From positions 33,982-93,567 of the forward strand of contig NZ_RYFF01000020.1 of assembly GCF_004138165.1 (NCBI RefSeq): 59,586 nt of DNA. Reading direction: 5' to 3'. Below the pieces are notes generated by a model that worked only from the letters and a program-made list of their open reading frames with translations, did no database searches and was not told the DNA's origin. The stretch comes from Candidatus Chloroploca sp. Khr17 (GTDB lineage: Bacteria; Chloroflexota; Chloroflexia; Chloroflexales; Chloroflexaceae). Every line of letters starts with the position of its first letter. The first letter of the stretch is position 1. Positions 6,036 through 54,956 of this stretch are shown here, in pieces. A program made the translations under genes and the position numbers.

Positions 6036-6184
6036 GGCTCATCAGGTGATGAAAGGAGACACAACGCACTCAAATCCAGTTGGTTGTAACACACTCACAT
6101 GCATTTATATATCTTTCTCGCTGATGTGAGGTCAGTGATACCTGTTTCTGGGCAGATACCACGGCCACAAACAAGGTGAATATC

Positions 6185-31791: not shown

Positions 31792-31870
31792 AGAGATTAG
31801 CCTTTGCGCCAAATCATTACAAAACGTACGTTACAGGCTACTTACTGGTCTGTCAACAGAGTTTTCCGAT

Positions 31871-31964
31871 AGCACCGCCGACCACGAATACTGATCACGA
31901 AGAAACGAATATGGGCGTTGCGGTGCGGTATTCGTTTCTTCGTGCCCCCAATTCGTGGACGGCT
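31871..31964. repeat. Second copy of the 'caccgccgaccacgaat ... attcgtggacggc' inverted-repeat element.
   Basis: 'agcaccgccgaccacgaatactgatcacgaagaaacgaatatgggcg...ttcgtgcccccaattcgtggacggc'. It is closely similar to 59219-59307 and 30193-30285. Confidence 0.85.
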
Positions 31965-32000
31965 GAGGACGCCAGAAAACTTAATTCACAAACTACGTAC

Positions 32001-37735: not shown

Positions 37736-37748
37736 AGGCTTACTCCTA

Positions 37749-38390: not shown

Positions 38391-38410
38391 TTCACACCCC
38401 TATACATTCA

Positions 38411-38977: not shown

Positions 38978-41787
38978 GCGCCTGCTCCAATCAACATTTG
39001 CAGCACCTGGGCATCTACGGGTAAGCCCGAGTTGCGCATCCAATCAGCAGCCAAACGCAGGTAGACCCGTCGCACTTCGGCGTAGCGCGGGTGCGCACCA
39101 AATCGTGCCGTACAGATCTGCTCAATCTGGGTATGGTCCAGGGCACGATCTCCATAGCCCCCCAGAACATCTTCAATCGTTTCAGGCAAGCTATACCCAT
39201 CTTGTGCAAGCACCCACTTAGCTGCGGCATGGGGATCGTCCGGTAGGATGCTAACGGTCTGCACTTGGTTTGGCATCGGTGGCTGCCAGAGCGCCGCTGG
39301 CGGCATCTGCAACGGGCGGCGGGCCATCATCGCCTTCACGGCCTCATCGGAGTCATCAAAGATCGGGCGATCATCGGGCGTCTGAAAACGATCCAGGTAG
39401 TTGCCAACCTGCACGAAGATCGGGCGACTATCGGGGCCTCGTACAATCACTTGGCCCTGCCCGAGTGAGCGTACGTATTCGCGCTGACGCTCATTCAGGT
39501 TCATCACCTCACAGAAGAGCTTAAAGCTCTCCTGATCTTCGAGCCGATGCATGATTTTGAGGTTCGTATTGCCTAGCGCACCATTGACCAGTTGGGTTGG
39601 GATCTGCTCAGCGATCAAGATCCCTTCCCCAAACCCGCGCACCTCAGCCAAAATATTGGCGAAATCCTCTCCACCACGACTCCGTGCGTCAGCAAGATCT
39701 TCGCTACCCTTGTGTCCAGCCGACATAAGCCGATGGGCTTCTTCGATCAGAGTCATGTGCAGTTGTTTGCCGCGTTGTTCGGGTGGGAGGCGTTTGTAGC
39801 GGCTCTGCAATTCTTGGGTCAGTTGTACCAACAAAAAGGCCATAATCAGGGCGCTATCTTCGGGGGAGCCAACCCTTCCTAATTCCATGACGGTTGGCCG
39901 TGAGAGCACTACACTGAGCGGGGCTGGAGCCGTGGTATTGACAATTGTCCCTGCATTGAGCAGAAGATCACGCATGCGAATTTCGGCTGATTGGCGTACC
40001 CGGTCTTTGGCCTCCTCATCAAAGCCCGCCGTCATCAACTCGCTCACCGCAACGAGCGTCGTGTAGAACGCAGCCAAGGTGGGGGTGCCTACCCCCGGAT
40101 CGCCCCCCTTGCCCTGTTCGAGATTCCAACCTGCATCGGTATAGACCTGACGCAGGGCTGCGCGATAAATCGCTGGCAGAGGATCCCACATCGAGAAGGC
40201 GGCCATAAAACAGCGCATCAACAAACTGAGATGGGTCTTAAGCAAGATCCCCTCTGCCACGTAGAAGGGGTTGAAGCGGAAAGGCGTGGTGGTTTCATCA
40301 CCCAGCGTAAAAATTAGCAGATCGTCGGCCATTTGTGGGTCGGCCATGAGTAGCCGATAGTCCGGTTTGTCAATTGGGTACATCACCAGGAATGGTACCT
40401 GGTGGTCGGCCCAAAGTTGGGCCAGCATGTGCAGGCATGTGTTAGTTTTACCGCTTCCCGTAGCCCCTGCGATGAGACCGTGGCGGTTAAGGTCACGGAT
40501 CGGAATTTGCATATACTGGCCAGTACGCGTGCCACGATGGATGATCTCACCGAGGTTCAAACAGGGCACGTTGGTGAGCAGGCGATCGGTTGGCAAAACG
40601 AATGGCTCGTCGCGTACCTCAAGCCCGGGTAGATAACCACTCTCGGGGGGGATCGGCAGACGGAAGGCCCCCGCCGCTTGGTCGGTACTGACGAGATAGC
40701 GCAAGCGTACTGTCGCCTGATCAACGCGTGTTGGCCCCCAGGCTCCGTACTCAAGAAACGCAAAGTTATAACGTGCAATCGCCAGATCTTGATCATCCTT
40801 AGGGCTTTCGCTGGCCCATTGACGTGGCTCCGGCGTATTGTTTTGAATCAACTCGGAACCCAGCGCTTCCATTACATCATTAGGTGCATAATCCGATCCT
40901 ATCACTTGGATTTTTATGCGGAATAAATGATTTCTTTTGTTGATCAGAGGCATAAAGGTACGGGAAATATCATCAAAGCGTTCACGGCGATACAAATCAA
41001 ACCATGATTTGGACTCAACTTCTGCTGTGAGATTGCGATAACGTGAGAGCAGTAAGTTAATCTGGAGTAGCTCTTCGTGGAAGAGCACTGTTGGTCGCAA
41101 GCAGATGCTTGCGACACAGGTTTGCTCTTGTTGCACCAGCGTTTCTAAGAAGCGGCCAAAAGCAGAAGCATCAAAAACTGGACTAAAGGGATGTGGGAAG
41201 TAGCCAATGGCATCAGTACCTGCGTATGGATCAAAATCCTCAAACTTGCGAATCTCGACCAATTGGTTCATGCCTACCTGTTCAATGGGAATAGGTAACA
41301 TTGAACGCATGAAGTCGTCTTCGCCTAACGGCTCTAATGGGTAGTTGAAAGGATCTTCGAGAGGGTAGTGACTACGAAACTTGCACCAGAGCTGCCAGCA
41401 CAGATTTTTGGCGCGATTGCGGTTGGGATGGAAAGCCTTGCCAAGAAAGACAATCTCAATGGTTGGGCGATGTCCTGTCACTTGACTTGGTCGAGCAATA
41501 AACCGCAGATCGAAGGCGGCACTACCCTCGGCAATCATCCGAGCGTTGATCAAATCATTCAGGAAGCGGATTTGACGCAGCGTAATCAACCGAATACGAC
41601 TCAGTTCACCTCCACTGAGCGTACGCGTGAAATCGCTGGTTAAAAAACTAGGAATGAACGGCACCCGTGCTGCAAAGATAGCGTGCGCCCCCTGCTGGCG
41701 AGTGACTTGCACCCCACTACCCCCCCAACTCTCGGCATAGTGGAACTCATCGGGATTGCTGACGTAGATGAACGGCTCTTGCAACAT
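38974..41787 (-). CDS. Island operon gene 10: HerA/FtsK-superfamily (DUF87-like) P-loop ATPase with a ~430-aa N-terminal domain of unknown function.
   Basis: SD 'aggaagg' lies 8 nt before ATG 41787. Walker A 'GLIAGATGSGKTN' at 40444-40467. Walker B/sensor 'LHMTLIEEAHRL'. 'ILIAEQIPTQL...NTNLKIMHRL' is typical of HerA-like NTPases. Confidence 0.75.
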   Translation of the reverse strand: MLQEPFIYVSNPDEFHYAESWGGSGVQVTRQQGAHAIFAARVPFIPSFLTSDFTRTLSGGELSRIRLITLRQIRFLNDLINARMIAEGSAAFDLRFIARPSQVTGHRPTIEIVFLGKAFHPNRNRAKNLCWQLWCKFRSHYPLEDPFNYPLEPLGEDDFMRSMLPIPIEQVGMNQLVEIRKFEDFDPYAGTDAIGYFPHPFSPVFDASAFGRFLETLVQQEQTCVASICLRPTVLFHEELLQINLLLSRYRNLTAEVESKSWFDLYRRERFDDISRTFMPLINKRNHLFRIKIQVIGSDYAPNDVMEALGSELIQNNTPEPRQWASESPKDDQDLAIARYNFAFLEYGAWGPTRVDQATVRLRYLVSTDQAAGAFRLPIPPESGYLPGLEVRDEPFVLPTDRLLTNVPCLNLGEIIHRGTRTGQYMQIPIRDLNRHGLIAGATGSGKTNTCLHMLAQLWADHQVPFLVMYPIDKPDYRLLMADPQMADDLLIFTLGDETTTPFRFNPFYVAEGILLKTHLSLLMRCFMAAFSMWDPLPAIYRAALRQVYTDAGWNLEQGKGGDPGVGTPTLAAFYTTLVAVSELMTAGFDEEAKDRVRQSAEIRMRDLLLNAGTIVNTTAPAPLSVVLSRPTVMELGRVGSPEDSALIMAFLLVQLTQELQSRYKRLPPEQRGKQLHMTLIEEAHRLMSAGHKGSEDLADARSRGGEDFANILAEVRGFGEGILIAEQIPTQLVNGALGNTNLKIMHRLEDQESFKLFCEVMNLNERQREYVRSLGQGQVIVRGPDSRPIFVQVGNYLDRFQTPDDRPIFDDSDEAVKAMMARRPLQMPPAALWQPPMPNQVQTVSILPDDPHAAAKWVLAQDGYSLPETIEDVLGGYGDRALDHTQIEQICTARFGAHPRYAEVRRVYLRLAADWMRNSGLPVDAQVLQMLIGAGA

Positions 41788-41806: not shown

Positions 41807-43195
41807 CTAAGCGTAAGCGGTCATAACGGCTTCGACCAGCACAAGTAGATCGCACTGGGGCGTCCAGTTAGCGAGCGGTTCAGGCATGAAGCGCTGCTCT
41901 TGTCCATCGAACTCTACAAACATAGTTGGAGCCTCTTGGGGATACCGAGCCGTACAACTAAAATAGATGCCGAGGGTGTGCCCAAGCTGATCACGCAGGC
42001 TGACACTGACCAGGAAGACGTTCGCATCTTCGTGTAGGGCGGCGTTTAGTCCCTGTGCTAGCATTGCGCCTATCTCGTTGCGCAGGCGTTCGCCAGCACC
42101 TGCGCCGCTGAAGCGTGCGACGGGTGACGGTAAAGCGGGAACAGTCACACCATACATCCCTCCGAGAGTAGCTGTAGGTGGGGCTACGGCCTGTCCGGTG
42201 AGCGCCCCAAGCAACACCTGTTGAAGGTCATTGCTACCTGCCGCCGATGTCCCCATCGGCAGCATCCCCGCCTTCGCCATCTCGGTCAGGGCCAGTAAGC
42301 GTTGTCCATCTGTTTGCGCTTTATCACCAAAGACACGCGTGTACATGTCTGGATTGGTCAGCAAGAGATATTGCGGTGTCAATTCAATCATGCGCGAGAT
42401 ATTCATCTGTGTGAGCGCCTGTGCCATCGCAATCTCGGCCTGCGAGTTCGCCTGGATCTTCGCGACCTCGGCATCAGTTTGCGCCTCGCGGGTACGCATA
42501 TAAACGTCACGTAATTTCTTGTCCAGTTCTTCAGCACCCGCAATACGCGTGATCTGGACGTTCGAGACTCGTATTCCCAAGTTGTCTTCAATGCCGCGTT
42601 GCTGCAATTGCTGTGCAACCATGTAACCTGCATGACCGCCCGCCTGGAAATCCTGGTATTTAGCAATTGATGCAGTGATCGAACGAATTGATTCCATCAC
42701 CGTATCATAGAGCCTCGTGAGCGGCTGTTCGACGACAAGCGCAACGTGTTCAGGATGAATTATCTGATAACTGACTGCAACATCGAGATCAACTGGCAAT
42801 GCAATCTTCTCACCCTGGGGCGGCTGATAGAAAATCGTAAACTCCTTCGTCGTTGTTATATCCAGCGTGCGCTCACGCGTATTGACCACGTAGAGATCAA
42901 TGCGATTCATCACGGGAAACGAGAGCGCGTGATAACTCCCTTCTTGCAGCACTTCGAGCACTCTGCCATCCCCGGTCACAACGACGGTAGTGCCAGCCAT
43001 AACCCGAAAGATACGAAAGATACTGGTGAAGACATTGTTATGAACACGTACTGGACCAAAGACAAGGGGTGAATTACTTAGATCAGCAAACGGTTCACGC
43101 AGGAAGTCATCAAGCGAGCCCTGTCTGCTCGCTGCTTCCTTATCGTTAACGTGACGACGGTTTAGGGGCATGGTCTGGTCACGGTTAGTTCCCAT
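41807..43195 (-). CDS. Island operon gene 9: SPFH/Band-7 (flotillin/prohibitin-like) domain fused to a C-terminal UEV/RWD-like (non-catalytic E2-fold) domain.
   Basis: ATG 43195 follows 'ggaaggag'. The SPFH-like core runs from 'VVVTGDGRVLEVLQEGSYHA...' through 'VDLDVAVSYQIIHPEHVALVV' and 'GIRVSNVQITRI' to a coiled-coil 'AQTDAEVAKIQANSQAEIAMAQA'. C-terminus 'LGIYFSCTARYPQEAPTMFVEF...NWTPQCDLLVLVEAV'. Confidence 0.7.
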   Translation of the reverse strand: MGTNRDQTMPLNRRHVNDKEAASRQGSLDDFLREPFADLSNSPLVFGPVRVHNNVFTSIFRIFRVMAGTTVVVTGDGRVLEVLQEGSYHALSFPVMNRIDLYVVNTRERTLDITTTKEFTIFYQPPQGEKIALPVDLDVAVSYQIIHPEHVALVVEQPLTRLYDTVMESIRSITASIAKYQDFQAGGHAGYMVAQQLQQRGIEDNLGIRVSNVQITRIAGAEELDKKLRDVYMRTREAQTDAEVAKIQANSQAEIAMAQALTQMNISRMIELTPQYLLLTNPDMYTRVFGDKAQTDGQRLLALTEMAKAGMLPMGTSAAGSNDLQQVLLGALTGQAVAPPTATLGGMYGVTVPALPSPVARFSGAGAGERLRNEIGAMLAQGLNAALHEDANVFLVSVSLRDQLGHTLGIYFSCTARYPQEAPTMFVEFDGQEQRFMPEPLANWTPQCDLLVLVEAVMTAYA

Positions 43196-43229
43196 ACGAG
43201 CCAACTCCTTCCTGAGGCGCACAAGGTTG

Positions 43230-44453
43230 TTAGGTTTGATTGGGTAATATGCTAAGCTGAATGACCGGAAGATCAGCCAAGATGTCCGAAGCTTCGGCGG
43301 CTGCTTCTTGTTCACTCATCTTGAGGCTTTCGGCTACGAAAGCTGAATAGTTGCACACCGGACATTGAGCATTCTTCGGCACATCAATGAAGAGGCTCTC
43401 TAACGGCTGTTGAAAGATCCACTCCGCACGATTACCGAAGAGGAGCCAGTTCGTCGGCAGATCCGGTAGCGTGTTCTGCTTATCGCGCAGAAGCGTTAGT
43501 AACGCCATACGCGCCATTAACAGCGCAATCATACCCACATCAACCCCTAGACCTGGCTGAGCCAGTAATTCTTCCATACGTGCGGGATCTTCGTAACCCA
43601 GCGAGAAATCCTGTGTAGCGGCAGGGGGAGGGCCAAAAAAATCGGCAATGACGGTCTGAAAACAGGCGTAGCAAGCACCCTCGGAGGGAATTGCACGGAA
43701 GATATCACCCCCAAAGGCGCGATTGTAGGCTGCGGCATAGATAGCCGGGATCCCTCTTGGCCAGCACACGGTATTGACCGCCAACTTTGAGTCTTCATGA
43801 TCAGTAGCGACCACAACCAGATCACACCCGGTAACAATGGTAGCTAGTTGATCCTCATGGCCTAACACGTTCAACTCGTAGGTCTCGACGGTAATTGCGG
43901 GCGAGATGTCGTAGAGCAGATCGCGCAGGGCACGGGTCTTATAGCGCCCGATATCGTGGAGGCCACACGCATGACGTGCAATATTGTGAACTTTGAGCCG
44001 ATCAAAATCCACCAACCGCATCTGCCCTACTCCGCAACGAGCAAGCTGGCTCGCCACCACTGAACCACCTGAGCCGAGGCCAATCACGGCAATGCACGTA
44101 TTGGCGAGGCTGCTCACTTCAAAGATGCCGTGCATACGTGAGGCATAGTCAGTATGCAAACGGATGACGTTGCAGGAAATCGTTTCCCATCCAGTAGCCT
44201 TGCTTTGCCAACCAGCAACCTGATCTGGCAACTCATCGTCAATGTTGAGGACTATTTCTTCCGGGGCCAGTTCTGTTGTTGGCGGTACAGGGCTGCGATA
44301 CCAGCGACCTAGGTACGCACCGGACGCCTCAAGGATTCCCCTGATTTGCACGACATCGCCATCGTCATAACGGTAGCCGTAGAGCTTGCCCTCTGTCTGT
44401 GCAGCAGTACCAAGCAACTGGTTAATCAAGCTATCAGGAACGGTAAGAAACAT
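43230..44453 (-). CDS. Island operon gene 8: ThiF/MoeB/E1-like adenylyltransferase with an N-terminal degenerate JAB-like segment.
   Basis: SD 'ggag' lies between the upstream TAG and ATG 44453. Rossmann motif 'IAVIGLGSGGS' at 44061-44081. 'RLVDFDRLKVHNIARH' is the E1 Arg-finger/Asp region. 'GACYACF'. The N-terminal 115 aa align by eye to the two JAB proteins, but with HKH replaced by YRS. Confidence 0.8.
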   Translation of the reverse strand: MFLTVPDSLINQLLGTAAQTEGKLYGYRYDDGDVVQIRGILEASGAYLGRWYRSPVPPTTELAPEEIVLNIDDELPDQVAGWQSKATGWETISCNVIRLHTDYASRMHGIFEVSSLANTCIAVIGLGSGGSVVASQLARCGVGQMRLVDFDRLKVHNIARHACGLHDIGRYKTRALRDLLYDISPAITVETYELNVLGHEDQLATIVTGCDLVVVATDHEDSKLAVNTVCWPRGIPAIYAAAYNRAFGGDIFRAIPSEGACYACFQTVIADFFGPPPAATQDFSLGYEDPARMEELLAQPGLGVDVGMIALLMARMALLTLLRDKQNTLPDLPTNWLLFGNRAEWIFQQPLESLFIDVPKNAQCPVCNYSAFVAESLKMSEQEAAAEASDILADLPVIQLSILPNQT

Positions 44454-44464
44454 CGGCAGACTCC

Positions 44465-45865
44465 CTATTGCAGTGGCTTCCCTTGATCTGGTTGAACCGA
44501 TGTTGGAAATACATAGCTGCGGTTGAACTCAGCGCAGAGGTCAGCCGCACTACGACAGGCCAGTTCAACTTGACGTACGATCAGACGACCTTGAAATTCG
44601 AGCAACTCACCAATGCGCTGGGATGGACGTGGTTGGGTCAAGGTTTCAAGCACATTGCGCACTACATCACGTAGGCGTATATGGGTACGCCAACCACCAG
44701 GAAAGAGTTGTTCAGTCACAATACGTACTACGTTATCATCACTCAACACGACTTGGACTTCAGGCGCTTGCTGCGGAAACTGTGAACCAGGATCAAGCTT
44801 AATAGCTTTGATCTGTAGCGGCTCTGTTTGCGCAACTGGCGCGACATTTACCATCCCCTCCGGCGTTTGCTGGGGTGCTGGGATTATCTCAGGGATATTC
44901 AGGGTCATTAGGGGCGGATGCGTAAAGGTAATCGTATACCAAACTCCGTTATCATCGCGCGTATGTACCTCCAGATGCGCCCCAGATCGCAAGGTCTGGC
45001 AGTACTGTTCCAGATCCTGTTGTTCGCGTGCAAAGCGGCCAGGAAGGGGAGGGATTGGCGGAATGCTTGCATCAGGTGGTGAACCTGAGAAAGGTGGTAT
45101 TTCAGGCGGCACGAAATCAGTCGCTGAACGACGAGTGTAAGAGGAACTTTCTAGATCGATGACCTCCAGGGTATCAGGAGGTTCCACATCTAGTGTGTAA
45201 GGTGAGGTATGTGGCTGCACCGGAGGATGGGAATGCAGATTGGCCCGGGCAGCACGGAGATCGGCCGGGTTGACTCCCCAGCGATCAGCAGTTCCTGATG
45301 TTGCGTGAGGAGGTTTTGGCGCAACTGTCTGTTGTTCTAGCGCAACCAGACCATCCAACAAGACGCGAAGGTCGCCTTCGACAAGCTCACATGGCACAGG
45401 CGTCGCACTCATCGTCTCACGGGGATAGTAGTGCCCATGGAGCAGAAATGTACCATCTTCAATGGTTACAAGTGGGGTGAAGATACCGTGGGGCAAATGA
45501 TAGGACTCATCGCTCAAGATATCGACCACCTGAAGCGTATCACCCGAACTTGGCCGATGCAAACCTGGCGGATGCTTATGCCACTCACCAACATAATCAA
45601 CGTGGTAGGTGGCGTAGTGCTGACGCCACGTTTCCAGGTCGCGTTGGCGAGCAAGTGCATCTGGAGCATAGGTATGCGCCCGTCGGTCGGCATTGCTACC
45701 AGGACCAGAGGCTGCCACAACGACGAGGTGGAGTCCATCGGGGAGTTGGAACATACGTCCAACCAGGATGCCGCCGGTCTCACGTCCAGGGCTCGTACAT
45801 GCCTCGTCGTACATCCGCTGATAGACATCTTGTTGGGCCAGATAGACGGTATTTGGTACTGGCAT
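44465..45865 (-). CDS. Island operon gene 7: JAB/MPN+ (JAMM) metallopeptidase fused to a C-terminal UEV/RWD-like domain.
   Basis: ATG 45865 lies one nt after the E2 stop codon (TAA 45869-45867). 'ETGGILVG'. An intact JAMM motif 'HKHPPGLHRPSSGD' (H-x-H-x7-S-x2-D) at 45539-45580. C-terminus 'IKAIKLDPGSQFPQQAPEVQVVL...GGWRTHIRLRDVVRNVL'. Confidence 0.85.
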   Translation of the reverse strand: MPVPNTVYLAQQDVYQRMYDEACTSPGRETGGILVGRMFQLPDGLHLVVVAASGPGSNADRRAHTYAPDALARQRDLETWRQHYATYHVDYVGEWHKHPPGLHRPSSGDTLQVVDILSDESYHLPHGIFTPLVTIEDGTFLLHGHYYPRETMSATPVPCELVEGDLRVLLDGLVALEQQTVAPKPPHATSGTADRWGVNPADLRAARANLHSHPPVQPHTSPYTLDVEPPDTLEVIDLESSSYTRRSATDFVPPEIPPFSGSPPDASIPPIPPLPGRFAREQQDLEQYCQTLRSGAHLEVHTRDDNGVWYTITFTHPPLMTLNIPEIIPAPQQTPEGMVNVAPVAQTEPLQIKAIKLDPGSQFPQQAPEVQVVLSDDNVVRIVTEQLFPGGWRTHIRLRDVVRNVLETLTQPRPSQRIGELLEFQGRLIVRQVELACRSAADLCAEFNRSYVFPTSVQPDQGKPLQ

Positions 45866-45866
45866 G

Positions 45867-46322
45867 TTAGTCTGCCTCAATTCCAGGCCAATAGGTTTTC
45901 CCTGACTCAAGCCAGGTTTCGTAGGCAAAGAACCAAGCGGCGGCTACCGCGATCACGGTTGCTGCCGTGGTTTGCTGGGCAAACGAACGATCACCAGGGT
46001 AGTAGAGGCATAGGTGTCCATCGTTATACTGGTGCTTGAGGCGGCCTGCTTGCTCGTCCTTCCAGACGGTAATCGCTGGGTTAATGGGATAAACTTTAGG
46101 CGGATCATCGGGAAAGTTGTCAGGATAGTAGAGTGCAATCTCATAGCGCCTTTCGCGATTACTCTCTAAGGTGCCGATCCAGACCAACTGGTTACTATCA
46201 CGCACGAGCTGAAACTGGGGAAAGCGCGTTTCCATAGCTCTCTTTTCCAGTACGAGTCGTGCGGGATTAAGGTCATACCACGCTGCATACCAGCGCATCG
46301 GACGGAGAATAGTTTGGCCCAT
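45867..46322 (-). CDS. Island operon gene 6: E2/UBC-like ubiquitin-conjugating-type enzyme with a candidate catalytic Cys.
   Basis: 'YEIALYYPDNFPDDPPKVYPINP' is the E2 flap motif (46098-46115). 'KHQYNDGHLCLYYPG' has the Cys codon at 46008-46010 (H..N..G.lC, as in E2 HPN...C). A C-terminal helix 'TVIAVAAAWFFAY' follows. Confidence 0.8.
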   Translation of the reverse strand: MGQTILRPMRWYAAWYDLNPARLVLEKRAMETRFPQFQLVRDSNQLVWIGTLESNRERRYEIALYYPDNFPDDPPKVYPINPAITVWKDEQAGRLKHQYNDGHLCLYYPGDRSFAQQTTAATVIAVAAAWFFAYETWLESGKTYWPGIEAD

Positions 46323-46387
46323 CGTAACTACCCTTATTCGTTGCTGCTTAACAGTGCTTTAGATGTCTATGTCCACAAGTGGATCGT

Positions 46388-46588
46388 TTATGCTCGTGTA
46401 AATAGGGCAAACCAGCGCTGCGGTTTAAGCACTGTCTTGCTCTGTGGATCGGTCTGCGCGACCTTGGGATCTTCTGGGACGTGCATCTTGCCATCCGGAC
46501 TGACGACAACTTCCTGTGCGGTGGCAAGACGCTTCTTAAGTTCTTCCAGGCTGGATTGTGGGCTACGAGGGGGTTGTGGCGTGCTCAT
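46388..46588 (-). CDS. Island operon gene 5: 66-aa hypothetical protein, probably disordered, occupying the position where a Ubl gene would be expected.
   Basis: ATG 46588 is preceded by a strong SD ('caggaggtacaccaccATG'). Sequence: MSTPQPPRSPQSSLEELKKRLATAQEVVVSPDGKMHVPEDPKVAQTDPQSKTVLKPQRWFALFTRA. There is no C-terminal Gly and no obvious beta-grasp pattern. Confidence 0.55.
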   Translation of the reverse strand: MSTPQPPRSPQSSLEELKKRLATAQEVVVSPDGKMHVPEDPKVAQTDPQSKTVLKPQRWFALFTRA

Positions 46589-46640
46589 GGTGGTGTACCT
46601 CCTGGGATTTGCTGACACGACTGGTATACGTACAAGGGAA

Positions 46641-47357
46641 TTAGATAATACGTTCGGTATATTGTGCCCAAACCGACTGTTGCGTCGGTGGCTGGTTCGT
46701 GACTTGAGCATAAGAAATGAGGCCCAAAAGGTTGTTGACCACTGCCAGCAGTGAACTATTGCCATTCCAACTGCGCAGAACAGACGAATCAAGTGCGAGG
46801 TGATGTTCGGCTAGTTCACCACAGGCATCAAACCCGAGCATGGTGGCAATGAGCTGCGGTGCGATAATTGGATAGTCATCCGTACAAATGAGATGGATCG
46901 AGACATTCTCCCCATCACTCCGTGCCACCCGGATCTGAACACAGTACTCTTCGACATCCGGGCGCCCGGCGAGGCTCACCGCCTCGTAACCATTACTGCG
47001 TAACTTCGCTACTTCTTGCGTCAAACGTTGCACCACATTTATTGGGGTAACATCAATCACTTGGCGACTTGCAACTGGGGTTCCGGCTGGTGTAAAACCA
47101 CCCGCGCCGGAACTCCAGGTTGGTACCTGCGATGAAAGCGTCGAAGTGTCTTCATGGATTGGCATTGGAGGCGGGCGCATGGTGGGACTAGCCGGTGGGA
47201 GAATGAACGCTTTACCCTGTTTTGATGTTACTTCTGATTGGCTCGTTGTGGCGCGTCGCCCACTCCCGCCTCGTTGGAGTACGAAGACAACGAGGATCAG
47301 GACGACGAGAACGAGGACGCCCCCACCAGCAATGATCAGCAGAATTGATGTATCCAA
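46641..47357 (-). CDS. Island operon gene 4: N-terminal TM anchor, Pro-rich linker and UEV/RWD-like domain.
   Basis: TTG start at 47357 follows GGAGG, which overlaps the upstream TAG ('TAGGAGGcgtcTTG'). TM 'ILLIIAGGGVLVLVVLILVVFVL'. 'VSIHLICTDDYPIIAPQLIATM...SWNGNSSLLAVVNNLL'. Confidence 0.7.
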   Translation of the reverse strand: MDTSILLIIAGGGVLVLVVLILVVFVLQRGGSGRRATTSQSEVTSKQGKAFILPPASPTMRPPPMPIHEDTSTLSSQVPTWSSGAGGFTPAGTPVASRQVIDVTPINVVQRLTQEVAKLRSNGYEAVSLAGRPDVEEYCVQIRVARSDGENVSIHLICTDDYPIIAPQLIATMLGFDACGELAEHHLALDSSVLRSWNGNSSLLAVVNNLLGLISYAQVTNQPPTQQSVWAQYTERII

Positions 47358-47365
47358 GACGCCTC

Positions 47366-49150
47366 CTAGCGGGGTATGATGCGTACCAGATAAGTCGCAC
47401 TGGTACTCAGATCCAGGTTCGCTTCGCCTACCATCGGCAATTCCGCCAGGCTCAGCAAGTAACGTCCACTGGGTAGGGCCGCACTCGCGACACCTGTCTG
47501 ATCAGTCACGATCTGGCGATTGCCGCTCGATCCCACAAGGTTGAGTACCAGATTAGAGGTAGGTGCAATAATCAGCAGATTGACCGGATCGCCATTGATC
47601 TGCGTTGCGAGACGACGATCCGTAAGCAAACGCGTCCATTCAGATGCATCGAGTCGGGTTGTAATGATTTGATAGGCACTCGTGCTTGCAAGCAAAGCTT
47701 CGGCTTCGCGCTTGAGTTGGCGCGCACTTTCCCCACGATCCTCTGCAACCTGAGCAAGGCTAAGTGCGGCGTTGGCCTGAGCGAGCGCGTCGGTGCCAAC
47801 TGTCCCGCCGCGTTCGAGCAAGGCTAGACCGTAACCGACATAAGAATCGTAGAGCCACTGCTCGACGGTGCGTACCGCAGGGTCGCTTGTGTTAGGCCTT
47901 AATTGCACGGCCTGTTCAAGTTCGCTGATCAGGGCGGGCCATGTAGCGACACTTGCATCGCGGAATTGTGTCGCCCGTGCAATCCACTTCAAACGATCAG
48001 CTAGTCCTTCAAGATCTTGCTCCAGAGTTGCAGCAAGTACATAATGCTCGTGAGACTCAATGACATCCGTGGCAAAGAGGAGGTCACCCCATGCCAGCTG
48101 GGCTTGTGCCAAGCGGGTCTTGACGCCTATCGCTGCTTCAGGACTCTGCGCTTCAGGGTGGAGAACATGGATCTGTTCAAGCAGGGCTACTACTTGTGCC
48201 CAACTTGCCGTGGTATTCACTGCCCATAGTTGCTCGGCCTCAGTCCAGAGCGTCTTCGTCCGGGCTTCGATAACAGCAACTAGTCCAGCCTGAGCATCAG
48301 AGGAGGCTGGATCAAGCGCGAGAGCCTGGCGAAACATGGCTTCCGCCTGATCAAGTTGGTTCGCTTCGAGGAGTGCGGACGCATAACGCTCATAGGCGGT
48401 GATGAGCGGGATTGGATTGGCAACCAGGCTACCGCAACTACCACCCACCCCGCTCTGACCACGGTTGTGCATTGCTTCGAGGGTATGGGTTACTTGCGCG
48501 AGGGATTCGCGATCACCGACTGCATAGGCTTGAGCCACGAACTGCTGCTCGGAAGCGCACGGATCGTAGAGCAAGGTATAGTAGAGTAGCAACCCCCCGG
48601 CAATGAGCAGGGTGACACCTCCACCTACCACGGCTAAGATCTTCCCTGTGGCGGAACGACGCGTTGGGGTAGGAAGGGGACGTTCTTCACGAGGTGGCAA
48701 CTCCTTAGGGAATGGCACATCAAGTGGTGGCATGGGGGCCACCGGTTCAGCAATGCGTGCAAGCCGTAGATTGGAACTCTGTACGCTGTCCTGGACTTCC
48801 AGAACGATTTCGTAGAGCATCTGGCGACTCGACCAACTGAGACGGGTTTTTGACTCGACATCAATCGGGAGTTCTTGTAACTCGCCGTAGCTTGTTGTGC
48901 CGGGTGTGGTCACGGTGACCACAAGATTGGGCGCCGTAGCTGGAAAATTTGCATCAAGCTGGAAGTAGAGATGCACCGGCTGTGGCCCTTCGTGCGTGTC
49001 ACGAACCAACTCTACTGTTAAGTAGTAGCGCTGAGCACTCGCGTCCTGCTGGAGGTCGCAAGCATAGCCCATATCACGGATGGCCTTGACCTCTTGACCA
49101 ATGCGCTCAGCGTGACTTTGGTCAGCGGCCATGGGGGGGAGGGATGACAT
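47366..49150 (-). CDS. Island operon gene 3: UEV/RWD-like domain, TM, helical (TPR-like) repeats and a C-terminal CarboxypepD_reg-like beta-sandwich.
   Basis: 'PVHLYFQLDANFPATAPNLVVTV...SWSSRQMLYEIVLEV'. TM 'ILAVVGGGVTLLIAGGLLLYYTLLY'. Repeats 'SWAQVVALLEQIHVLHP' and 'TWPALISELEQAVQLRP'. C-terminus 'DQTGVASAALPSGRYLLSL'. Confidence 0.75.
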   Translation of the reverse strand: MSSLPPMAADQSHAERIGQEVKAIRDMGYACDLQQDASAQRYYLTVELVRDTHEGPQPVHLYFQLDANFPATAPNLVVTVTTPGTTSYGELQELPIDVESKTRLSWSSRQMLYEIVLEVQDSVQSSNLRLARIAEPVAPMPPLDVPFPKELPPREERPLPTPTRRSATGKILAVVGGGVTLLIAGGLLLYYTLLYDPCASEQQFVAQAYAVGDRESLAQVTHTLEAMHNRGQSGVGGSCGSLVANPIPLITAYERYASALLEANQLDQAEAMFRQALALDPASSDAQAGLVAVIEARTKTLWTEAEQLWAVNTTASWAQVVALLEQIHVLHPEAQSPEAAIGVKTRLAQAQLAWGDLLFATDVIESHEHYVLAATLEQDLEGLADRLKWIARATQFRDASVATWPALISELEQAVQLRPNTSDPAVRTVEQWLYDSYVGYGLALLERGGTVGTDALAQANAALSLAQVAEDRGESARQLKREAEALLASTSAYQIITTRLDASEWTRLLTDRRLATQINGDPVNLLIIAPTSNLVLNLVGSSGNRQIVTDQTGVASAALPSGRYLLSLAELPMVGEANLDLSTSATYLVRIIPR

Positions 49151-49207
49151 AGCAACTACTCTCTTGTAAGCGACGCGAATGCCCAGCGTTGACGAGCCTT
49201 ACGAAAC

Positions 49208-50017
49208 TCAGATCCGGCCATAGAGATCAGTAACAATCGTTGCCAGACGACACGAACCGTCCCAGGGGAAGAAGATTCCGGAACCAATATTGAGCGAGGT
49301 GCCATGGCGCTCGACAACCACGGAAGGTGGTTGCTGAGGGTAAGTTGGCTCACACACCATATAGATCGTCGTCCCATCCTGTGGTCGGGTAACGGTTACG
49401 CAGCACGTGCCGTCTTGGAGGGTATTGATCTGGACGGTGCCAAATTGGGCCAGTGCTATGCGCTCACCAGCGATACGCTCGGCGAGATCCAAACTAGGAC
49501 GAGGTGTGGCTCCCCCTACCGTCTGGTGCGGGCTAGGTGGTGGATCAGGTGGTAGTAATGGCCCCGAACTACGTAGCCCAGCAGTAGGGGAGGCGTTCGT
49601 TCTAGCTATGAGTCCGCTCGTCCGGAGATTGCCGTCCGACCTAGAGGCTATAGTAGGCCCGCGGCCCATTGAACTGCCAAGCACGAGGCCAAGCAGTAGG
49701 CCGGGAGCTGTCCCAAGCAGCATTGCCACACTGTACATACGCAAACTCCCAAGGGCTAGTCCTAGATTATCGCTCAGCAGCATATTTAGGACACCACAAA
49801 GCAGCACAAAGACGAGCGCACTAGCTGCGGGGCCAACGAAGATCGCCCAGTGGTAACCTTGTGCGACACGCCCGCGTAAGAGTAGACCTCCACCCAGGCC
49901 CCCGATGATCAGCCCGATCATTGCCAGAGCTAGAACCACCAGCGGGTTCGTGCTGATCAATAGGCCCATGCCCAGGAAGAAGAGACAACTGACGATGATA
50001 ACCATTGCTGCAAGCAT
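49208..50017 (-). CDS. Island operon gene 2: 4-TM Gly-zipper membrane domain, Pro-rich linker and UEV/RWD-like domain.
   Basis: ATG 50017 lies 3 nt after the upstream TAA, with GGAGGA inside the last codons of the upstream gene. TM segments include 'GLIIGGLGGGLLL'. 'TTIYMVCEPTYPQQPPSVVVER...PWDGSCRLATIVTDLY'. Confidence 0.75.
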   Translation of the reverse strand: MLAAMVIIVSCLFFLGMGLLISTNPLVVLALAMIGLIIGGLGGGLLLRGRVAQGYHWAIFVGPAASALVFVLLCGVLNMLLSDNLGLALGSLRMYSVAMLLGTAPGLLLGLVLGSSMGRGPTIASRSDGNLRTSGLIARTNASPTAGLRSSGPLLPPDPPPSPHQTVGGATPRPSLDLAERIAGERIALAQFGTVQINTLQDGTCCVTVTRPQDGTTIYMVCEPTYPQQPPSVVVERHGTSLNIGSGIFFPWDGSCRLATIVTDLYGRI

Positions 50018-50020
50018 GGG

Positions 50021-52735
50021 TTATTCCTCCAGGCTAACAGTAATTTTGTAGTATTTCGATTTCTCGAAGCTAAACTCAATTGCTGTTGATCGAATTTTTG
50101 TTTCACCACCTACTGATTCCACTGTCAGTCTATTGCGGCCATCAATATTCATAAACTTAAAGCTTACACGAATTTCAGAATCTCCTCCTCTTAAAATTGC
50201 ATCACTAGGCCCTACGAGAAGTACATTAACATTTGGAGGCGGCGTTCCACCATTGGCTTCGGTCATCTCATTCTCTGAAATTTCACTAATTGCGATTCTA
50301 TATAGGGGCCATGTAGCTTCCTCAGCCGTTTGGGTTTGGGTTTGGGCTTGCGCCAGAGCCTCCGCTTGTGCGGTAGCAGCAACAGCAGAGGCTGTGGCTT
50401 CAGCATTAGCGGTGGCACTAGCAGCAGCAGCAGCAGCAGCAGTAGCGCTGGCCTGGGCCACAGCCGTGGTCGTTTGCGCCTGTGCGGTTGCGGCGGGGTT
50501 AGGTGTGGGGCGGGGTGTAGAGACATCAGCAGCCAAGGCACGATTAGCACTTTCCTTTAGCTTGGCAACTGTCTCTGCTGTCTCTGCTGTCTCTGCTGAG
50601 CTCGGCCTGACGGCTTCACTACCAAAGTCGTCGAGTTGCTCCAGCAAGCTTAATGCGTCTAAGACCGCACGCCAATCAGTACGATTGAGCGCCTCTTCAA
50701 CTTCAGACCATAACTCATCGGCCTGCGTCTGGGTAGTATTGGCATCATCAATGGACTGATCTAATGCATCATCACCACGCTCATTCGTACGCAAAAAATC
50801 TGCATTTACCCTGGCTTCATTGATCTGAGCCTGTGCATCGTCAAGCTTCCCATCCCGCCAGAGAGCACGGGCATATTTTAGGCGGGTCTCAGACTGGATT
50901 TTAGCCACGTCTGATATGCGTGGATCACCTCCTTGAAATGCAACAGGATCCGGTAAAAGGCCAGTAGTTGCTACAATTTCGTCAAGGATCCTCACCGCCT
51001 GTTGCCAATTACCATCGTCTACTGCTTTATCGTAGCTGGCCCACTCGGCCTCTAACCGCTGCACGTCACCAAGAGCATCAACAGCTTGACGGATCTCAGT
51101 ACGTAGTGCGCTGAGTTCCTCCTGTAAGGAGCGCGAGATTTGGCTGTCATTGCCTTCCGGCCAATTAGTAGATAACAGCGTTCGTGCCTCTACCAGTTTC
51201 TGTGCTTCCACGTTTTCAGTATCAATCTTTGTACGCACCTCGGCCATGAGCACTTTCACGAACCAATCGTTAGCTCGTTGCTTCGCTTCGTCATCCATAC
51301 TCAAAGCAGCACGCTGAGCCTGCTTCGCTACCTCGCGTGCGAGGTCGAACTCAGGTGGCTCAGCAGCAAGATAATCGTTGATTAACAGTAGGCGCGCATC
51401 ATGGATCAATTGCGTGATGTCGCGTCCTCGTGGGTCCGTAGTTTCACCTTCTTTAAGTCGTTCCTGTAACTTAGCAATGCGCTCTGAAAGCGAGAGGTTA
51501 GGATTATCTATTTCGATCCACATAGCGATGGCGGTCTGGGTTTGGGTAGCCTGAAGAGCAGCAGTCGCCGTTGCGTCGCTCGCTGTCTGATCCAGAGTTA
51601 AAGTTGCGCTAGGTGTCTGTTCGATCCCAGTCAATGGTTCCTGGCCCTGTGGTTGACCAACCTGCTCACCACTGGACCAGATCTGCCAACCGACAAAGCC
51701 AAATAAACCAAGCGCTACGAGTGATAAGGCCGCAACGAGAACAACAAAGCCTCCATTCTGGCGTTTCCTTGCCGCAGTTCTCGATGGCGGCGAAACCGGG
51801 CTAGGCGTTGATGGATGCACGACAGGAGCAATGGGCAGTGCAGCGGCGACGGGCATCGCACGAAGAACGCCCTCGACTACATCAACCAAGTGTGAATTGC
51901 CGTTATGATAGGTCCACTGGTTAATCACACCATCATCGTTCTGTGGCAACGCAGTGCCAGCCCGTTCAATGGCTACCAGGGCCGGTGGTACTCGTGGGAA
52001 GTCATTCGGGGCCATCAGATAGATCGTGAGATCAGGATGCTGGTTCGTGCGGACTTCAAAGAAGAAATTCGTATCTTGGCTCTTCAGCGTCACCTGATAG
52101 CCCCGCTCACGAAGCAAACGATGCTCTTCGCCAATACGATCATTGATCGGTGGGCTGCTTGCACCATCAGCTCGCTCGCGCTGGATCAGAGGATGCTCAT
52201 CATCAATTTCATGCACACGTGAAGCCTGAATTTCTACAAAAGGCTCACGCCGTTGCGCCATTTGGCGACTCATGTAGTAGTAACGGATGGTAAACTCACC
52301 GCGATCAACCCAGACAATCGGGTTAATGATCTCATTGATTTTATAGGCCGGATCGCGAAAGACGGCATGGGCAGTGGCGACATCACCCGCACTAAATGTC
52401 TGGTAACGTGCAGGATGTTTATGCCATGTGCCGATATAATCTGTTTTCGGGTAGCGGGCGTGATATTCTTGTAACTTACCGTTAACATAGTCAATGTCGG
52501 GATTAAATTCCACCGGATGGTGATACGCATTTTCACCCGGCCCAGTGGCTGCAATGATCAATAGCTGAACGATCTCTTCCCCATCAAGACGTCGTCCAAC
52601 CAGGATGCCCCCAGTCTCATTTTCCAAACTCGTTGTACTACCTCGCCGGGCTTCCTCTTCAATCAGGCGGCGGGCTGAACGCGTGATATAAATCTTACCA
52701 GGGAGCGGTGACTTCTGGGTACTGAGCTGTGACAT
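50021..52735 (-). CDS. Island operon gene 1: JAB/MPN+ metallopeptidase, UEV/RWD-like domain, TM, ~550-aa helical-repeat region and a C-terminal beta domain.
   Basis: SD 'ggagga' lies 5 nt before ATG 52735. 'ETGGILVG'. Intact JAMM 'HKHPARYQTFSAGD' at 52382-52423. 'LTIYLMAPNDFPRVPPALVAIE' with FPRVPP at 51983-52000. TM 'GGFVVLVAALSLVALGLFGFVGW'. Helical repeats ('NWQQAVRILDEIV', 'DWRAVLDALSLLEQL'), an Ala/Thr/Gln low-complexity stretch, and a beta-rich C-terminus. Confidence 0.8.
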   Translation of the reverse strand: MSQLSTQKSPLPGKIYITRSARRLIEEEARRGSTTSLENETGGILVGRRLDGEEIVQLLIIAATGPGENAYHHPVEFNPDIDYVNGKLQEYHARYPKTDYIGTWHKHPARYQTFSAGDVATAHAVFRDPAYKINEIINPIVWVDRGEFTIRYYYMSRQMAQRREPFVEIQASRVHEIDDEHPLIQRERADGASSPPINDRIGEEHRLLRERGYQVTLKSQDTNFFFEVRTNQHPDLTIYLMAPNDFPRVPPALVAIERAGTALPQNDDGVINQWTYHNGNSHLVDVVEGVLRAMPVAAALPIAPVVHPSTPSPVSPPSRTAARKRQNGGFVVLVAALSLVALGLFGFVGWQIWSSGEQVGQPQGQEPLTGIEQTPSATLTLDQTASDATATAALQATQTQTAIAMWIEIDNPNLSLSERIAKLQERLKEGETTDPRGRDITQLIHDARLLLINDYLAAEPPEFDLAREVAKQAQRAALSMDDEAKQRANDWFVKVLMAEVRTKIDTENVEAQKLVEARTLLSTNWPEGNDSQISRSLQEELSALRTEIRQAVDALGDVQRLEAEWASYDKAVDDGNWQQAVRILDEIVATTGLLPDPVAFQGGDPRISDVAKIQSETRLKYARALWRDGKLDDAQAQINEARVNADFLRTNERGDDALDQSIDDANTTQTQADELWSEVEEALNRTDWRAVLDALSLLEQLDDFGSEAVRPSSAETAETAETVAKLKESANRALAADVSTPRPTPNPAATAQAQTTTAVAQASATAAAAAAASATANAEATASAVAATAQAEALAQAQTQTQTAEEATWPLYRIAISEISENEMTEANGGTPPPNVNVLLVGPSDAILRGGDSEIRVSFKFMNIDGRNRLTVESVGGETKIRSTAIEFSFEKSKYYKITVSLEE

Positions 52736-52900: not shown

Positions 52901-53189
52901 TGATCAAGGTGGTCAGGCTTGAACGCAGGGAAGCAGCGCACGCGGGCATGGTGACCGTGGTCGCTCGGTGAACGAACGAGATTCTTCAGTTCTTGGTTCG
53001 CATATGTACCGCAATTGCAGCTTCGGGCCGTGAACCGCGCGGCTTGTGGGCAGCGAAGGCTACCTGCGTGGCCTGATCCAGCCGACGAAGGTCGGCTTTG
53101 CCATGCGTCGCCGCCGCGTTGACGCCGACGGTCTGGGCGGATGGGTGCGTTCTGCCGGTTGGGGAATTTGCGCGCCTGGCTTTAGTGTC

Positions 53190-53201
53190 GTATCATGATA
53201 C
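53190..53201 (+). promoter_or_regulatory. 12-bp perfect palindrome abutting the hicA start codon (candidate HicB operator).
   Basis: 'gtatcatgatac' at 53190-53201, with the ATG at 53203. Confidence 0.3.
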
Positions 53202-53202
53202 T

Positions 53203-53469
53203 ATGGAGCTAAGCAGTCGCCACCGCAAGATGCTACGGGCCGTTTTTGCTGATCCCGTTCGCGCTGACGTGAAGTGGGCGGACGTTGAGACGCTGCTGCA
53301 TGCGCTTGGTGTCGACATTGGCGAAGGAAGAGGGTTACGCGTCCGGATCCAACTCAACGGTGTGCGCGCCGTCTTTCATCGACCGCATCCTATCCCGGAT
53401 ACCGACAAAGGTGCGCTTAGGTCATTACGACGGTTCCTAATAGAAGCAGGTGTGAAGCCGGAGGAATGA
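53203..53469 (+). CDS. hicA: Type II toxin-antitoxin system toxin, HicA family.
   Basis: 88 aa from ATG 53203. 'HRKMLRAVFADPVRADVKWADVETLLHALG...FHRPHP' matches the HicA-family pattern as I remember it. It lies directly upstream of the hicB-like gene. Confidence 0.75.
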   Translation: MELSSRHRKMLRAVFADPVRADVKWADVETLLHALGVDIGEGRGLRVRIQLNGVRAVFHRPHPIPDTDKGALRSLRRFLIEAGVKPEE

Positions 53470-53472
53470 GCC

Positions 53473-53793
53473 ATGCTGCAGTATAAGGGCTATACGGGTC
53501 GCGTTGAGCTTGATGATGAGGCTGGCATTTTCCATGGAGAGGTGCTCGACCTCCGTGATGTGGTCACCTTCCAGGGAAGGAGTGTGGACGAGTTAGTCCA
53601 AGCCTTTCGTGACTCGATCGATGACTATCTCGACTTCTGCAAAGAACGTGGCGAGGAACCGGATAAGCCTTTCACGGGACGGTTGATGCTTCGCCTGCCG
53701 CCTGAATTGCATCGGAAGGCCTATGTTCGGGCGCAGCGTGAGGGCAAGAGTTTGAACCAGTGGATTAGTGATAAGCTGGCGGAGGTCAGCTAA
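53473..53793 (+). CDS. hicB: Type II toxin-antitoxin system antitoxin, HicB family (with a C-terminal RHH-like DNA-binding tail).
   Basis: SD GGAGGA sits within the hicA 3' end. 'MLQYKGYTGRVELDDEAGIFHGEV...FQGRSVDELVQAFRDSIDDYLDFCKERGEEP' and 'GRLMLRLPPELHRKAYVRAQREGKSLNQWI'. Confidence 0.85.
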   Translation: MLQYKGYTGRVELDDEAGIFHGEVLDLRDVVTFQGRSVDELVQAFRDSIDDYLDFCKERGEEPDKPFTGRLMLRLPPELHRKAYVRAQREGKSLNQWISDKLAEVS

Positions 53794-54152: not shown

Positions 54153-54956
54153 ATGAAGAGTGCACCTATGGACTATCAGCATCCCTCCGTCGATCAGATG
54201 ACGTTGCACAAGATAATTGCCCAGTGCAATGCTGAATTTGGGTGGGGGCTCAGTGCAAGTGAGCTTGAGTCTTATGCGCAGTCGCTTGTGCGCTGTCTGC
54301 CTGAGCATGTCGATCAGGTGAAGCTTACGCAGATGGTGCTGTATTATCATCAGGATCATCAGCAGGTTGCGGCGCTGCAAAATAGATCCCATCCAGACCA
54401 TGATCAGTTCTGGACGATCTGGTTGCATGACGTGGCGCAGGTGATTAACCGGGGTAAGATGGCGTCACTTGGCGATCATGCGCTTGATGCTGATGATCTT
54501 GCCCAGACGGCGCTCGATGAAATGTCACGCTCGCTCAAGAATTTCAAATACCAGAGCAGCCTGAAGACTTGGGTGTATAGATTAGTTGTGCAGACTTCCC
54601 GCCGGATGCTGCGCGATCTTCGTGCGAAGAAGCGTCCGCGTGGGGTTGCGTCGTTAGATGAGTTGCCTGAGGAGGCGTTGGCGCTCTGTGATGCTTGTGA
54701 GCCCGATGAAGAAGCATGTGGCGAGATGTTGATTGGGTTGACGTGCGCGTTGCTTGAGCGGATCAAAGATCAACGTATGGCTCAGATCTTCTATCTTGCC
54801 GCCGTTGATGACCTCTCGACTGCGCAGATCGGCAACATCGTGCATCTCCATCCGTCACGGGTGCGGGCGTTGTTGCAGCAGGCTCGCACGTTGTTGCAAG
54901 AACGCCCGGAAATTCAGGCGTGGCTCGCGGATCACGAAGCTTCCCCGTTCGTCTAA
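54153..54956 (+). CDS. ECF-type RNA polymerase sigma-70 family factor with a ~100-aa N-terminal extension.
   Basis: Region 2-like 'LAQTALDEMSRSLKNFKYQSSLKTWVYRLVVQTSRRMLRD'. Region 4 HTH 'LSTAQIGNIVHLHPSRVRALLQQARTLLQ'. The start is uncertain (ATG 54153 or 54168, no clear SD). Confidence 0.75.
   Translation: MKSAPMDYQHPSVDQMTLHKIIAQCNAEFGWGLSASELESYAQSLVRCLPEHVDQVKLTQMVLYYHQDHQQVAALQNRSHPDHDQFWTIWLHDVAQVINRGKMASLGDHALDADDLAQTALDEMSRSLKNFKYQSSLKTWVYRLVVQTSRRMLRDLRAKKRPRGVASLDELPEEALALCDACEPDEEACGEMLIGLTCALLERIKDQRMAQIFYLAAVDDLSTAQIGNIVHLHPSRVRALLQQARTLLQERPEIQAWLADHEASPFV

Follow-up and report, generated by a model that had tools for sequence, protein, structure and literature searches.

Why should a bacterium keep six domains with the fold of a ubiquitin-conjugating enzyme (E2) beside a single E2 that has a catalytic cysteine? 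The question is raised by an operon of Candidatus Chloroploca sp. Khr17, a filamentous Chloroflexales bacterium, which lies on the minus strand of a 59,586-nucleotide stretch of contig NZ_RYFF01000020.1 (hereafter the window, meaning the whole stretch analysed) and runs with tightly packed genes from 52735 down to about 35601. Its products are publicly annotated as 'SPFH domain-containing', 'tetratricopeptide repeat' or 'hypothetical'. An earlier note, made from the sequence alone, had claimed that seven of them share a domain of the UBC fold common to E2, UEV and RWD domains, and that only one has a catalytic cysteine. The gene order is P904, P269, P594, P238, an open reading frame (ORF) of 66 codons, P151 (the E2), P466, an E1, P462, a HerA/FtsK-like ATPase and four more genes (Table 1); the domains of the six proteins other than P151 are referred to as D904, D269, D594, D238, D466 and D462. 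We conclude that these six are ancient paralogs of a minimal UBC fold from which the catalytic loop has been lost.

Six UBC-fold domains and one catalytic E2

The first evidence of a relationship was a flap hexapeptide, [YF]P..[AP]P, whose seven instances all translate exactly as had been quoted, at the minus-strand positions given in Table 1. In the six frames of the whole window the motif occurs nine times; seven of these occurrences are the claimed sites, in seven separate genes of one operon, and the remaining two lie in non-coding frames. The similarity extends past the motif and takes in a helix at the N-terminus (R-x3-E-x3-L), a run of three strands, the flap, two further strands and a helix that starts with Trp. 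Of the two-part signature that had been proposed, the flap stands for all seven proteins, but the second part in its literal form, W-x3-5-L-x2-[VI][VI], fits only four: P904, with W-x8-L, and P462, which ends in LV, narrowly miss it, and P151 is without the second motif, so that the two-part signature is valid for six proteins.

The fold itself is supported by structure prediction and by profile matches. The AlphaFold2 model of D238, obtained with a 67-sequence alignment (predicted local distance difference test score, pLDDT, 93.1; predicted template modelling score 0.85), consists of a helix, five strands, a short helix and a helix, forms the alpha/beta sandwich of the UBC superfold, and has the flap in the turn between strands 3 and 4 (E51-58 and E68-76). 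The top 33 Foldseek matches are all of the UBC fold, and the structural similarity of the model was scored at 10.2 for FANCL, 10.1 for the Tsg101 UEV, 9-10 for many E2s, 9.2 for Vps37A, 9.1 for RWDD3, 8.8 for the GCN2 RWD, 8.4 for BRE, 8.2 for Knl1 and 7.7 for Citrobacter BubB. At the profile level, the family matches PDB sequences of FANCL (2.7e-5), the BRE/BRCC45 UEV (3.7e-5), UbcH7 (1e-4), UEV2/Mms2 (1.6e-4) and Vps37A (1e-3), and the Pfam matches at E<=0.1 among 67 members are to RWD (28), UEV (11) and UQ_con (5), the best RWD match reaching 1.8e-6. Both UBC-like models and profile matches to E2, UEV and RWD were thus obtained, where the earlier note would have taken the absence of either as a sign that the motif is a coincidental proline-rich linker in unrelated proteins. 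That explanation can draw on the two chance hexapeptides in non-coding frames, one of which (FPIAPP, in an ORF at 31794-32009 of the plus strand) reaches 13 bits and E 0.002 against the hidden Markov model (HMM) of the family, a measure of the false-match reach of the flap motif alone. Against it, shuffling the residues of the operon's 14 proteins gave a mean of 0.26 and a maximum of three matches in 2000 shuffles, compared with seven observed; the homology covers about 100 residues, the HMM giving E-values of 1e-23 to 1e-25 and profile-profile comparison, independently, one of 4e-11; the UBC-fold model is of high confidence; and orthologs are conserved in other genera. The linker explanation is already refuted and deserves practically no credence.

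With respect to described families, all six window domains stay below the gathering score of Pfam RWD (PF05773, 22.8 bits); five are without any match, and D594 has a near-full-length but sub-threshold one (E 0.003, 18.1 bits). The family is therefore a relative of RWD and UEV and not a member of those Pfam families. Comparison with Pfam, NCBIfam and PADLOC assigns no family to the six domains, to the 66-aa ORF or to the C-terminus of the SPFH fusion protein. An exhaustive HMMER profile search of 1.84 billion representative proteins yields 171 representatives of the family at E<=1e-3, 32 of them reaching 1e-10; a word-indexed protein search with the six-domain profile returned one match only, a near-identical copy of P238. 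A few matches with UQ_con, zf-RING_2 or FANCL_C in the weak tail look like genuine E2 or FANCL proteins, not family members.

Within the operon, D904, D269, D594, D238 and D462 are interlinked by pairwise phmmer comparison (D904 with D238, D269 and D594; D269 with D904 and D462). D466 is far more divergent than these five, has an insertion of about 30-40 residues between strands and is weak in pairwise comparison. Its membership follows from profile-profile comparison with the family: a profile of five D466 orthologs matched family profile A3, from which D466 had been excluded, at 97.2% probability (E 4.4e-11, 100 aligned columns). With an HMM built without D466, P466 still comes sixth of 564 six-frame ORFs (E 2.9e-7), its match broken in two by the insertion, and the profile of D466 orthologs alone retrieved nothing meaningful from PDB sequences.

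P151 is the catalytic member of the set. PF26395 (E2-CBASS, from CBASS, the antiphage signalling system based on cyclic oligonucleotides) is found in all 63 close homologs of P151, and P151 matches the PADLOC E2 model (E 1.9e-24); the local Pfam copy gave no match for P151 itself. H97, Q98, G102, L104, C105 and L106 are invariant among 38 sequences of its family, and the invariance of C105 identifies it as the catalytic cysteine. A His-containing loop followed by an invariant Cys before helix 2 is present in P151 only. This element had been described as H-x-N-x-G-x-x-C, a reading that has to be corrected, since the actual HQYNDGHLC is H-x-x-N-x-G-x-x-C and its Asn is not conserved among homologs. 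The AlphaFold2 model of P151 (pLDDT 87) has E2 and UEV as its only structure matches, and hhalign relates the inactive family to the E2 family at 95.7% probability (E 1.1e-8) from helix 1 through the flap, the C-terminal halves having diverged. The RefSeq annotation of this E2 covers 122 aa only and cuts off the conserved helix 1.

In the other family no nucleophile is invariant, which bears out the claim of a single catalytic cysteine. Only two prolines and the Trp are invariant in 137 family domains; the next most conserved residues are R (82%), E (89%) and L (86%) of helix 1 and an L of the last helix (90%). No column is invariant for Cys, Ser, Thr, His or Lys, and at the active-site loop the six domains lack an invariant nucleophile of either kind, Cys or the Ser used in Bub.

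Table 1. Genes and domains of the Chloroploca operon, with positions in the window.
Feature	Position	Strand	Remarks
P904 (904 aa)	50021-52735	-	JAB peptidase, UBC-fold domain, one transmembrane helix (330-348), long extracytoplasmic tail
JAB/JAMM peptidase of P904	52259-52699	-	HKH-x7-S-x2-D motif intact; Prok-JAB E 5.3e-7; PADLOC JAB E 7.6e-18
D904, inactive UBC-fold (UEV/RWD-like), residues 197-295	51851-52147	-	flap FPRVPP at 51983-52000; family HMM E 1.5e-23
P269	49208-50017	-	four transmembrane helices, UBC-fold domain at C-terminus
D269, inactive UBC-fold, residues 176-269	49211-49492	-	flap YPQQPP at 49325-49342; family HMM E 1.5e-23
P594	47366-49150	-	UBC-fold domain at N-terminus, one transmembrane helix, tetratricopeptide repeats
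D594, inactive UBC-fold, residues 13-124	48779-49114	-	flap FPATAP at 48929-48946; family HMM E 4e-25
P238	46641-47357	-	single N-terminal transmembrane helix, then UBC-fold domain
D238, inactive UBC-fold, residues 106-217	46707-47042	-	flap at 46857-46874; inactive domain chosen for AlphaFold2 model
66-aa ORF, putative conjugated tag	46388-46588	-	directly upstream of E2; AGGAGG ribosome-binding site upstream; KPQRWF at 46409-46426
P151, catalytic E2, 151 aa	45870-46322	-	flap at 46098-46115; HQYNDGHLCL loop 46005-46034; Cys105 codon 46008-46010
P466	44465-45865	-	JAB peptidase, then UBC-fold domain
JAB/JAMM peptidase of P466	45416-45847	-	HKH-x7-S-x2-D motif intact; Prok-JAB E 2.3e-8; PADLOC JAB E 2.4e-15; Cap3 E 2.3e-7
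D466, divergent inactive UBC-fold, residues 274-413	44627-45046	-	flap FPQQAP at 44762-44779; C-terminal to second JAB
E1-like adenylating enzyme (ThiF family, Cap2-type)	43230-44453	-	ThiF E 5.3e-35; PADLOC E1-E2 E 5.7e-41
P462	41807-43195	-	SPFH/Band-7 (Pfam Band_7 E 2.7e-8), UBC-fold domain at C-terminus
D462, inactive UBC-fold, residues 366-462	41810-42100	-	flap YPQEAP at 41927-41944; family HMM E 6.4e-25
HerA/FtsK-superfamily P-loop ATPase, 937 aa	38974-41787	-	HerA_C E 4.1e-8; FtsK_SpoIIIE E 1.4e-4; PADLOC mad8/HerA E 1.1e-18

Orthologs, fusion partners and the likely role of the domains

For every one of the six window domains a single clear ortholog can be named in the syntenic operon of Oscillochloris trichoides DG-6, with identities of 42-74% (42% for D269, 45% for D904, 60% for D594 and 65% for D462); paralogs within the window are only 23-30% identical. 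These one-to-one orthologs imply that the duplications are old and have been maintained. A 641-aa protein of O. trichoides (4923-6887 of its locus, L001) carries a seventh inactive copy at its N-terminus and resembles P904 in its C-terminal part. A six-frame scan of the same locus also uncovered a JAB-bearing ORF (1140-3842) that is absent from the locus gene table.

Related loci were collected by scanning 185,579 species genomes with an E2 profile, which returned 21 loci, mostly from Chloroflexota, with a few from Acidobacteriota, a cyanobacterial metagenome-assembled genome and Myxococcales; the two most distant, L024 and L025, are Cap2-like E2-E1 fusions. Wherever the contig extends far enough, loci of this E2 family contain the small ORF, the E2 and the E1; their inactive domains number between 0 and 7. 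The pair formed by the SPFH protein with its inactive domain and HerA recurs in five loci, with co-occurrence in L001, L007, L009 and L011. Prok-JAB (25 cases) and Band_7 (19 cases) are the partners to which the domain is repeatedly fused in a set of 133 family representatives; single cases (representatives P0065-P0208) involve YukD, TIR_2, EAD2 (effector-associated domain 2), PKD and PASTA, and the last four hint at links to conflict or immunity systems. In the window the six inactive domains are carried by the SPFH scaffold, by both JAB peptidases and by four proteins that span the membrane, and transmembrane predictions combined with the positive-inside rule place all six domains in the cytoplasm together with the E1 and the E2.

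Eukaryotic UEV, RWD and FANCL domains act as non-catalytic docking modules. In the reading that we favor, with a probability of about 0.6, the operon is a CBASS-related conjugation core with six non-catalytic docking modules that tether their hosts to the E2, to the E2 charged with a tag (E2~tag) or to the tag. The core consists of a tag candidate of about 65 aa, one catalytic E2, one E1 and two JAB isopeptidases; each inactive domain would tether its own host, whether an isopeptidase, the scaffold or a protein of the membrane, to the one E2 (free or as E2~tag) or else to the tag; and conjugation and deconjugation would take place at a membrane-bound SPFH/HerA assembly. This reading is preferred because the domains decorate accessory proteins, keep the E2-like helix 1 and flap, and persist as separate orthologous lineages. 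The recruitment of E2 or tag to membrane proteins, JABs and the SPFH protein, as the earlier note envisaged, agrees with the fusions and with the variable copy number, and the domains would serve in the assembly by binding E2~tag, the tag or each other. The core persists without inactive domains, so that its conjugation chemistry is evidently independent of them and the copies look accessory. The fusion of a JAB with a UEV-like domain recalls the pairing of BRCC36 with BRE. For a UEV function, defined by the non-covalent binding of a modifier or an active E2, the evidence for the six domains consists of the weak Pfam UEV matches (11 of 67 members) and the structural similarity.

The domains could also be RWD-type oligomerisation modules that bind each other, like kinetochore RWD pairs, and build a membrane complex without contact to E2 or tag. 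This is rather unlikely, given that the domain is found essentially only beside this E2/E1/tag core and shares the homology of helix 1 and flap with that very E2. Moreover, hetero-pairing of paralogs would be impossible in the single-copy loci L006, L007 and L019, in which contig ends may hide more copies.

Several observations weigh against the docking reading. The Foldseek E-values are weak, the best being 8.9e-3, and the fold models cover two of the seven domains (D238 and P151), the other five being assigned by sequence homology. Loci with zero inactive domains keep an equally conserved tag candidate, from which it follows that the core function of the tag is independent of these domains. 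A Ser six residues before the Trp (W-6), present in 56% of members, adjoins the position aligned with the E2 Cys in Ubc13 and lies near the vestigial active site, D269, D594 and D238 included. Finally, the absence of a Cys is no proof of inactivity, as shown by the 'inactive E2/RWD-like' domain of type 6e operons (PMC1779556), which was later demonstrated to be a working E2 with oxyester rather than thioester intermediates (PMC11601596). The cysteine-less domains might accordingly be thought of as unconventional active E2s or E3-like transferases that use Ser, Thr or a non-canonical Cys, several parallel enzymes with different targets. The candidate residues make this improbable. The W-6 Ser is replaced by Pro, Leu, Gly or Asp among members, is absent from three of the six window domains, and begins the short helix of the D238 model, consistent with a capping role. 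The strand-3 Cys, which 62% of members have four residues ahead of the flap, is in phase with buried Ile and Leu and is replaced by Leu, Thr or Ala. Neither is invariant, the HxN-type loop is absent, and both residues were judged unlikely as hidden active sites, their substitution patterns pointing to a structural role.

The putative tag

An ORF of about 65 aa lies upstream of the E2, or is fused to it, in every locus of this E2 family. It ends exactly in ...[VIL]KP[STQ]RWF in 13 loci, has a short C-terminal extension in four (ALFTRA in the window, where six residues follow the conserved KPQRWF; SA in O. trichoides; and two others) and is fused in frame to the N-terminus of the E2 in three, L004 among them. 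A conserved N-terminal segment, LEELKKRL..AQ.V.VD..GRL, is followed by a variable low-complexity middle, a composition that, judged from the sequence, looks unlike a beta-grasp protein. Its appearance is that of either a conjugation tag without a beta-grasp fold or a piece split off from the E2.

It has been described for E2-CBASS that the C-terminal tail of a substrate is covalently linked to the E2, that a C-terminal extension is cleaved and that natural substrate-E2 fusions exist (PMC12948482); the tag-E2 fusions and short tag extensions found here parallel those substrate-E2 fusions and that cleaved extension. As P151 belongs to the E2-CBASS family with such substrate chemistry, the 66-aa peptide may by the same logic be the conjugated tag, which is a lead and not a result.

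The junction between tag and E2 has features of its own. Within the first 14 residues of the window E2 (46280-46322, minus strand), LRPMRWYA echoes the C-terminal motif LKPQRWFA of the 66-aa ORF, as if a fusion junction had been duplicated when the gene was split. In loci where the ORF ends cleanly at RWF, the E2 starts directly past that motif (MAWYE...). Residues 1-110 of the E1 form a conserved N-terminal domain of about 110 residues without family match, common to the E1s of eight related loci; it is possible that it provides a docking site for the E2 or for the inactive domains.

Neighbouring genes, known systems and meaning

The flanks of the operon are ordinary genes, with phosphoenolpyruvate carboxylase on one side and, on the other, a HicA/HicB pair (53098-53793, plus strand) and a gene for an extracytoplasmic function (ECF) sigma factor (54153-54956, plus strand) that abut it. 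The operon has a GC content of 0.48-0.57, with its minimum at 36-38 kb; upstream of it, most of the window lies at 0.58-0.64. The low GC content, the abutting HicAB and ECF genes and flanks unlike those of O. trichoides suggest that the operon is a mobile island.

Directly downstream of the HerA-like ATPase lie variable cassettes that resemble nuclease toxin/immunity pairs, in the window (36932-39043, minus strand) as well as in L009 (12423-14570), L001 (17267-19301) and L011 (15149-16041). In L009 a SUKH-1 immunity protein (1.2e-25) comes after a WHH nuclease (2.9e-18), and the O. trichoides cassette includes a restriction endonuclease-fold UPF0102 domain (3.3e-5). In the window, a K-rich 213-aa protein (37749-38390), encoded in the most AT-rich part of the operon, has a weak match to toxins of contact-dependent inhibition (1.5e-3, below the cut-off) and is followed by a conserved 280-aa protein without family. 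The N-terminal regions of the toxin candidates are of low complexity, acidic with TDMG repeats in L009 and Lys/Pro-rich in the window. The variant locus L004 has a YukD-type ubiquitin-like domain fused to an inactive domain (11854-12498) and a 1088-aa FtsK_SpoIIIE ATPase (2378-5644) in place of HerA, parts that are reminiscent of type VII secretion. These cassettes and the FtsK_SpoIIIE/YukD variant are the grounds for the hypothesis that the whole system may control or deliver toxins.

Among described systems, type II CBASS has enzymes in common with the operon, in that the Cap2/Cap3 and E2-CBASS (PF26395) families include the active E2, the E1 and both JABs. Nevertheless, Pfam, PADLOC and NCBIfam models detect no CD-NTase or cyclic-nucleotide effector among the operon proteins, and an identity with CBASS was rejected for this reason. 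Unlike in CBASS, E1 and E2 are separate genes, and the peptide of about 65 aa stands in the place of the cyclase. To our knowledge, inactive UBC-fold paralogs, SPFH and HerA are all foreign to CBASS.

Cysteine-less UBC-fold domains in bacterial ubiquitin-like operons have been known in principle since 2006 (PMC1779556), when such a domain was found through weak E2/RWD profile matches in the type 6e (now Bub) operons, together with a poly-ubiquitin-like protein (polyUbl) and an E1-JAB fusion. The operon described here is likewise a bacterial ubiquitin-like operon with cysteine-less UBC-fold domains, and L004 adds the YukD-type fusion. A type 6e operon, however, has a single domain of this kind, which serves as its working E2 (PMC11601596), whereas here a canonical Cys-E2 is accompanied by six- to sevenfold cysteine-less copies. 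An assignment to Bil (type 6d) or Bub (type 6e) was rejected, as the operon has no beta-grasp ubiquitin-like protein with C-terminal Gly, no CEHH protein and no polyUbl with E1-JAB fusion; its one small ORF is that of the 66-aa protein, which matches no family. None of the operon types 6a-6e matches this gene set, and no description of this operon type was found in the literature, of which our coverage is incomplete.

Compared with the eukaryotic UEVs (Tsg101/Vps23, Mms2/Uev1, the UEV-like domain of Vps37A, BRE/BRCC45), the present domains are bacterial, of about 100 residues and outside any Pfam family; six paralogs share one operon and are fused to JAB, SPFH or membrane proteins; and instead of ubiquitin they would bind a CBASS-type E2 or a peptide that is not a beta-grasp. 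They differ from RWD domains and the central UBC-RWD of FANCL in that they have no RING, WD or kinase partners and in a helix-1 motif, R-x3-E-x3-L, that is more E2-like. What appears to be novel is a distinct unannotated family that occurs six- to sevenfold in one operon beside a canonical E2, fused to JAB, SPFH and membrane proteins.

A more far-reaching proposal can be put forward only tentatively. The locus may encode an undescribed conjugation system in which a non-beta-grasp KPxRWF tag of about 65 aa is charged on the CBASS-type E2 with the E1 and trimmed or removed by the JABs, and in which six to seven UEV-like readers link the tag to an SPFH/HerA-FtsK machine in the membrane, by which nuclease toxins paired with immunity proteins are controlled or exported. 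If this were true, bacteria would have independently built a multi-reader ubiquitin-like signalling network.

Catalytically dead UBC-fold domains (UEV, RWD) multiplied as adaptors and readers have so far been associated chiefly with eukaryotes, and their expansion is commonly seen as a step of eukaryogenesis; bacterial ubiquitin-like operons are regarded as minimal sets of E1, E2 and deubiquitinase. Here, six anciently diverged and individually conserved inactive copies (seven in Oscillochloris) mark the members of one pathway, namely both isopeptidases, the SPFH protein as scaffold and the four proteins that span the membrane. The domain family defined in this way has about 170 representatives and is absent from Pfam. 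The operon offers a tractable system for how non-catalytic E2 variants organise a conjugation pathway, and it points to conjugation by a modifier that is perhaps not ubiquitin-like at all.

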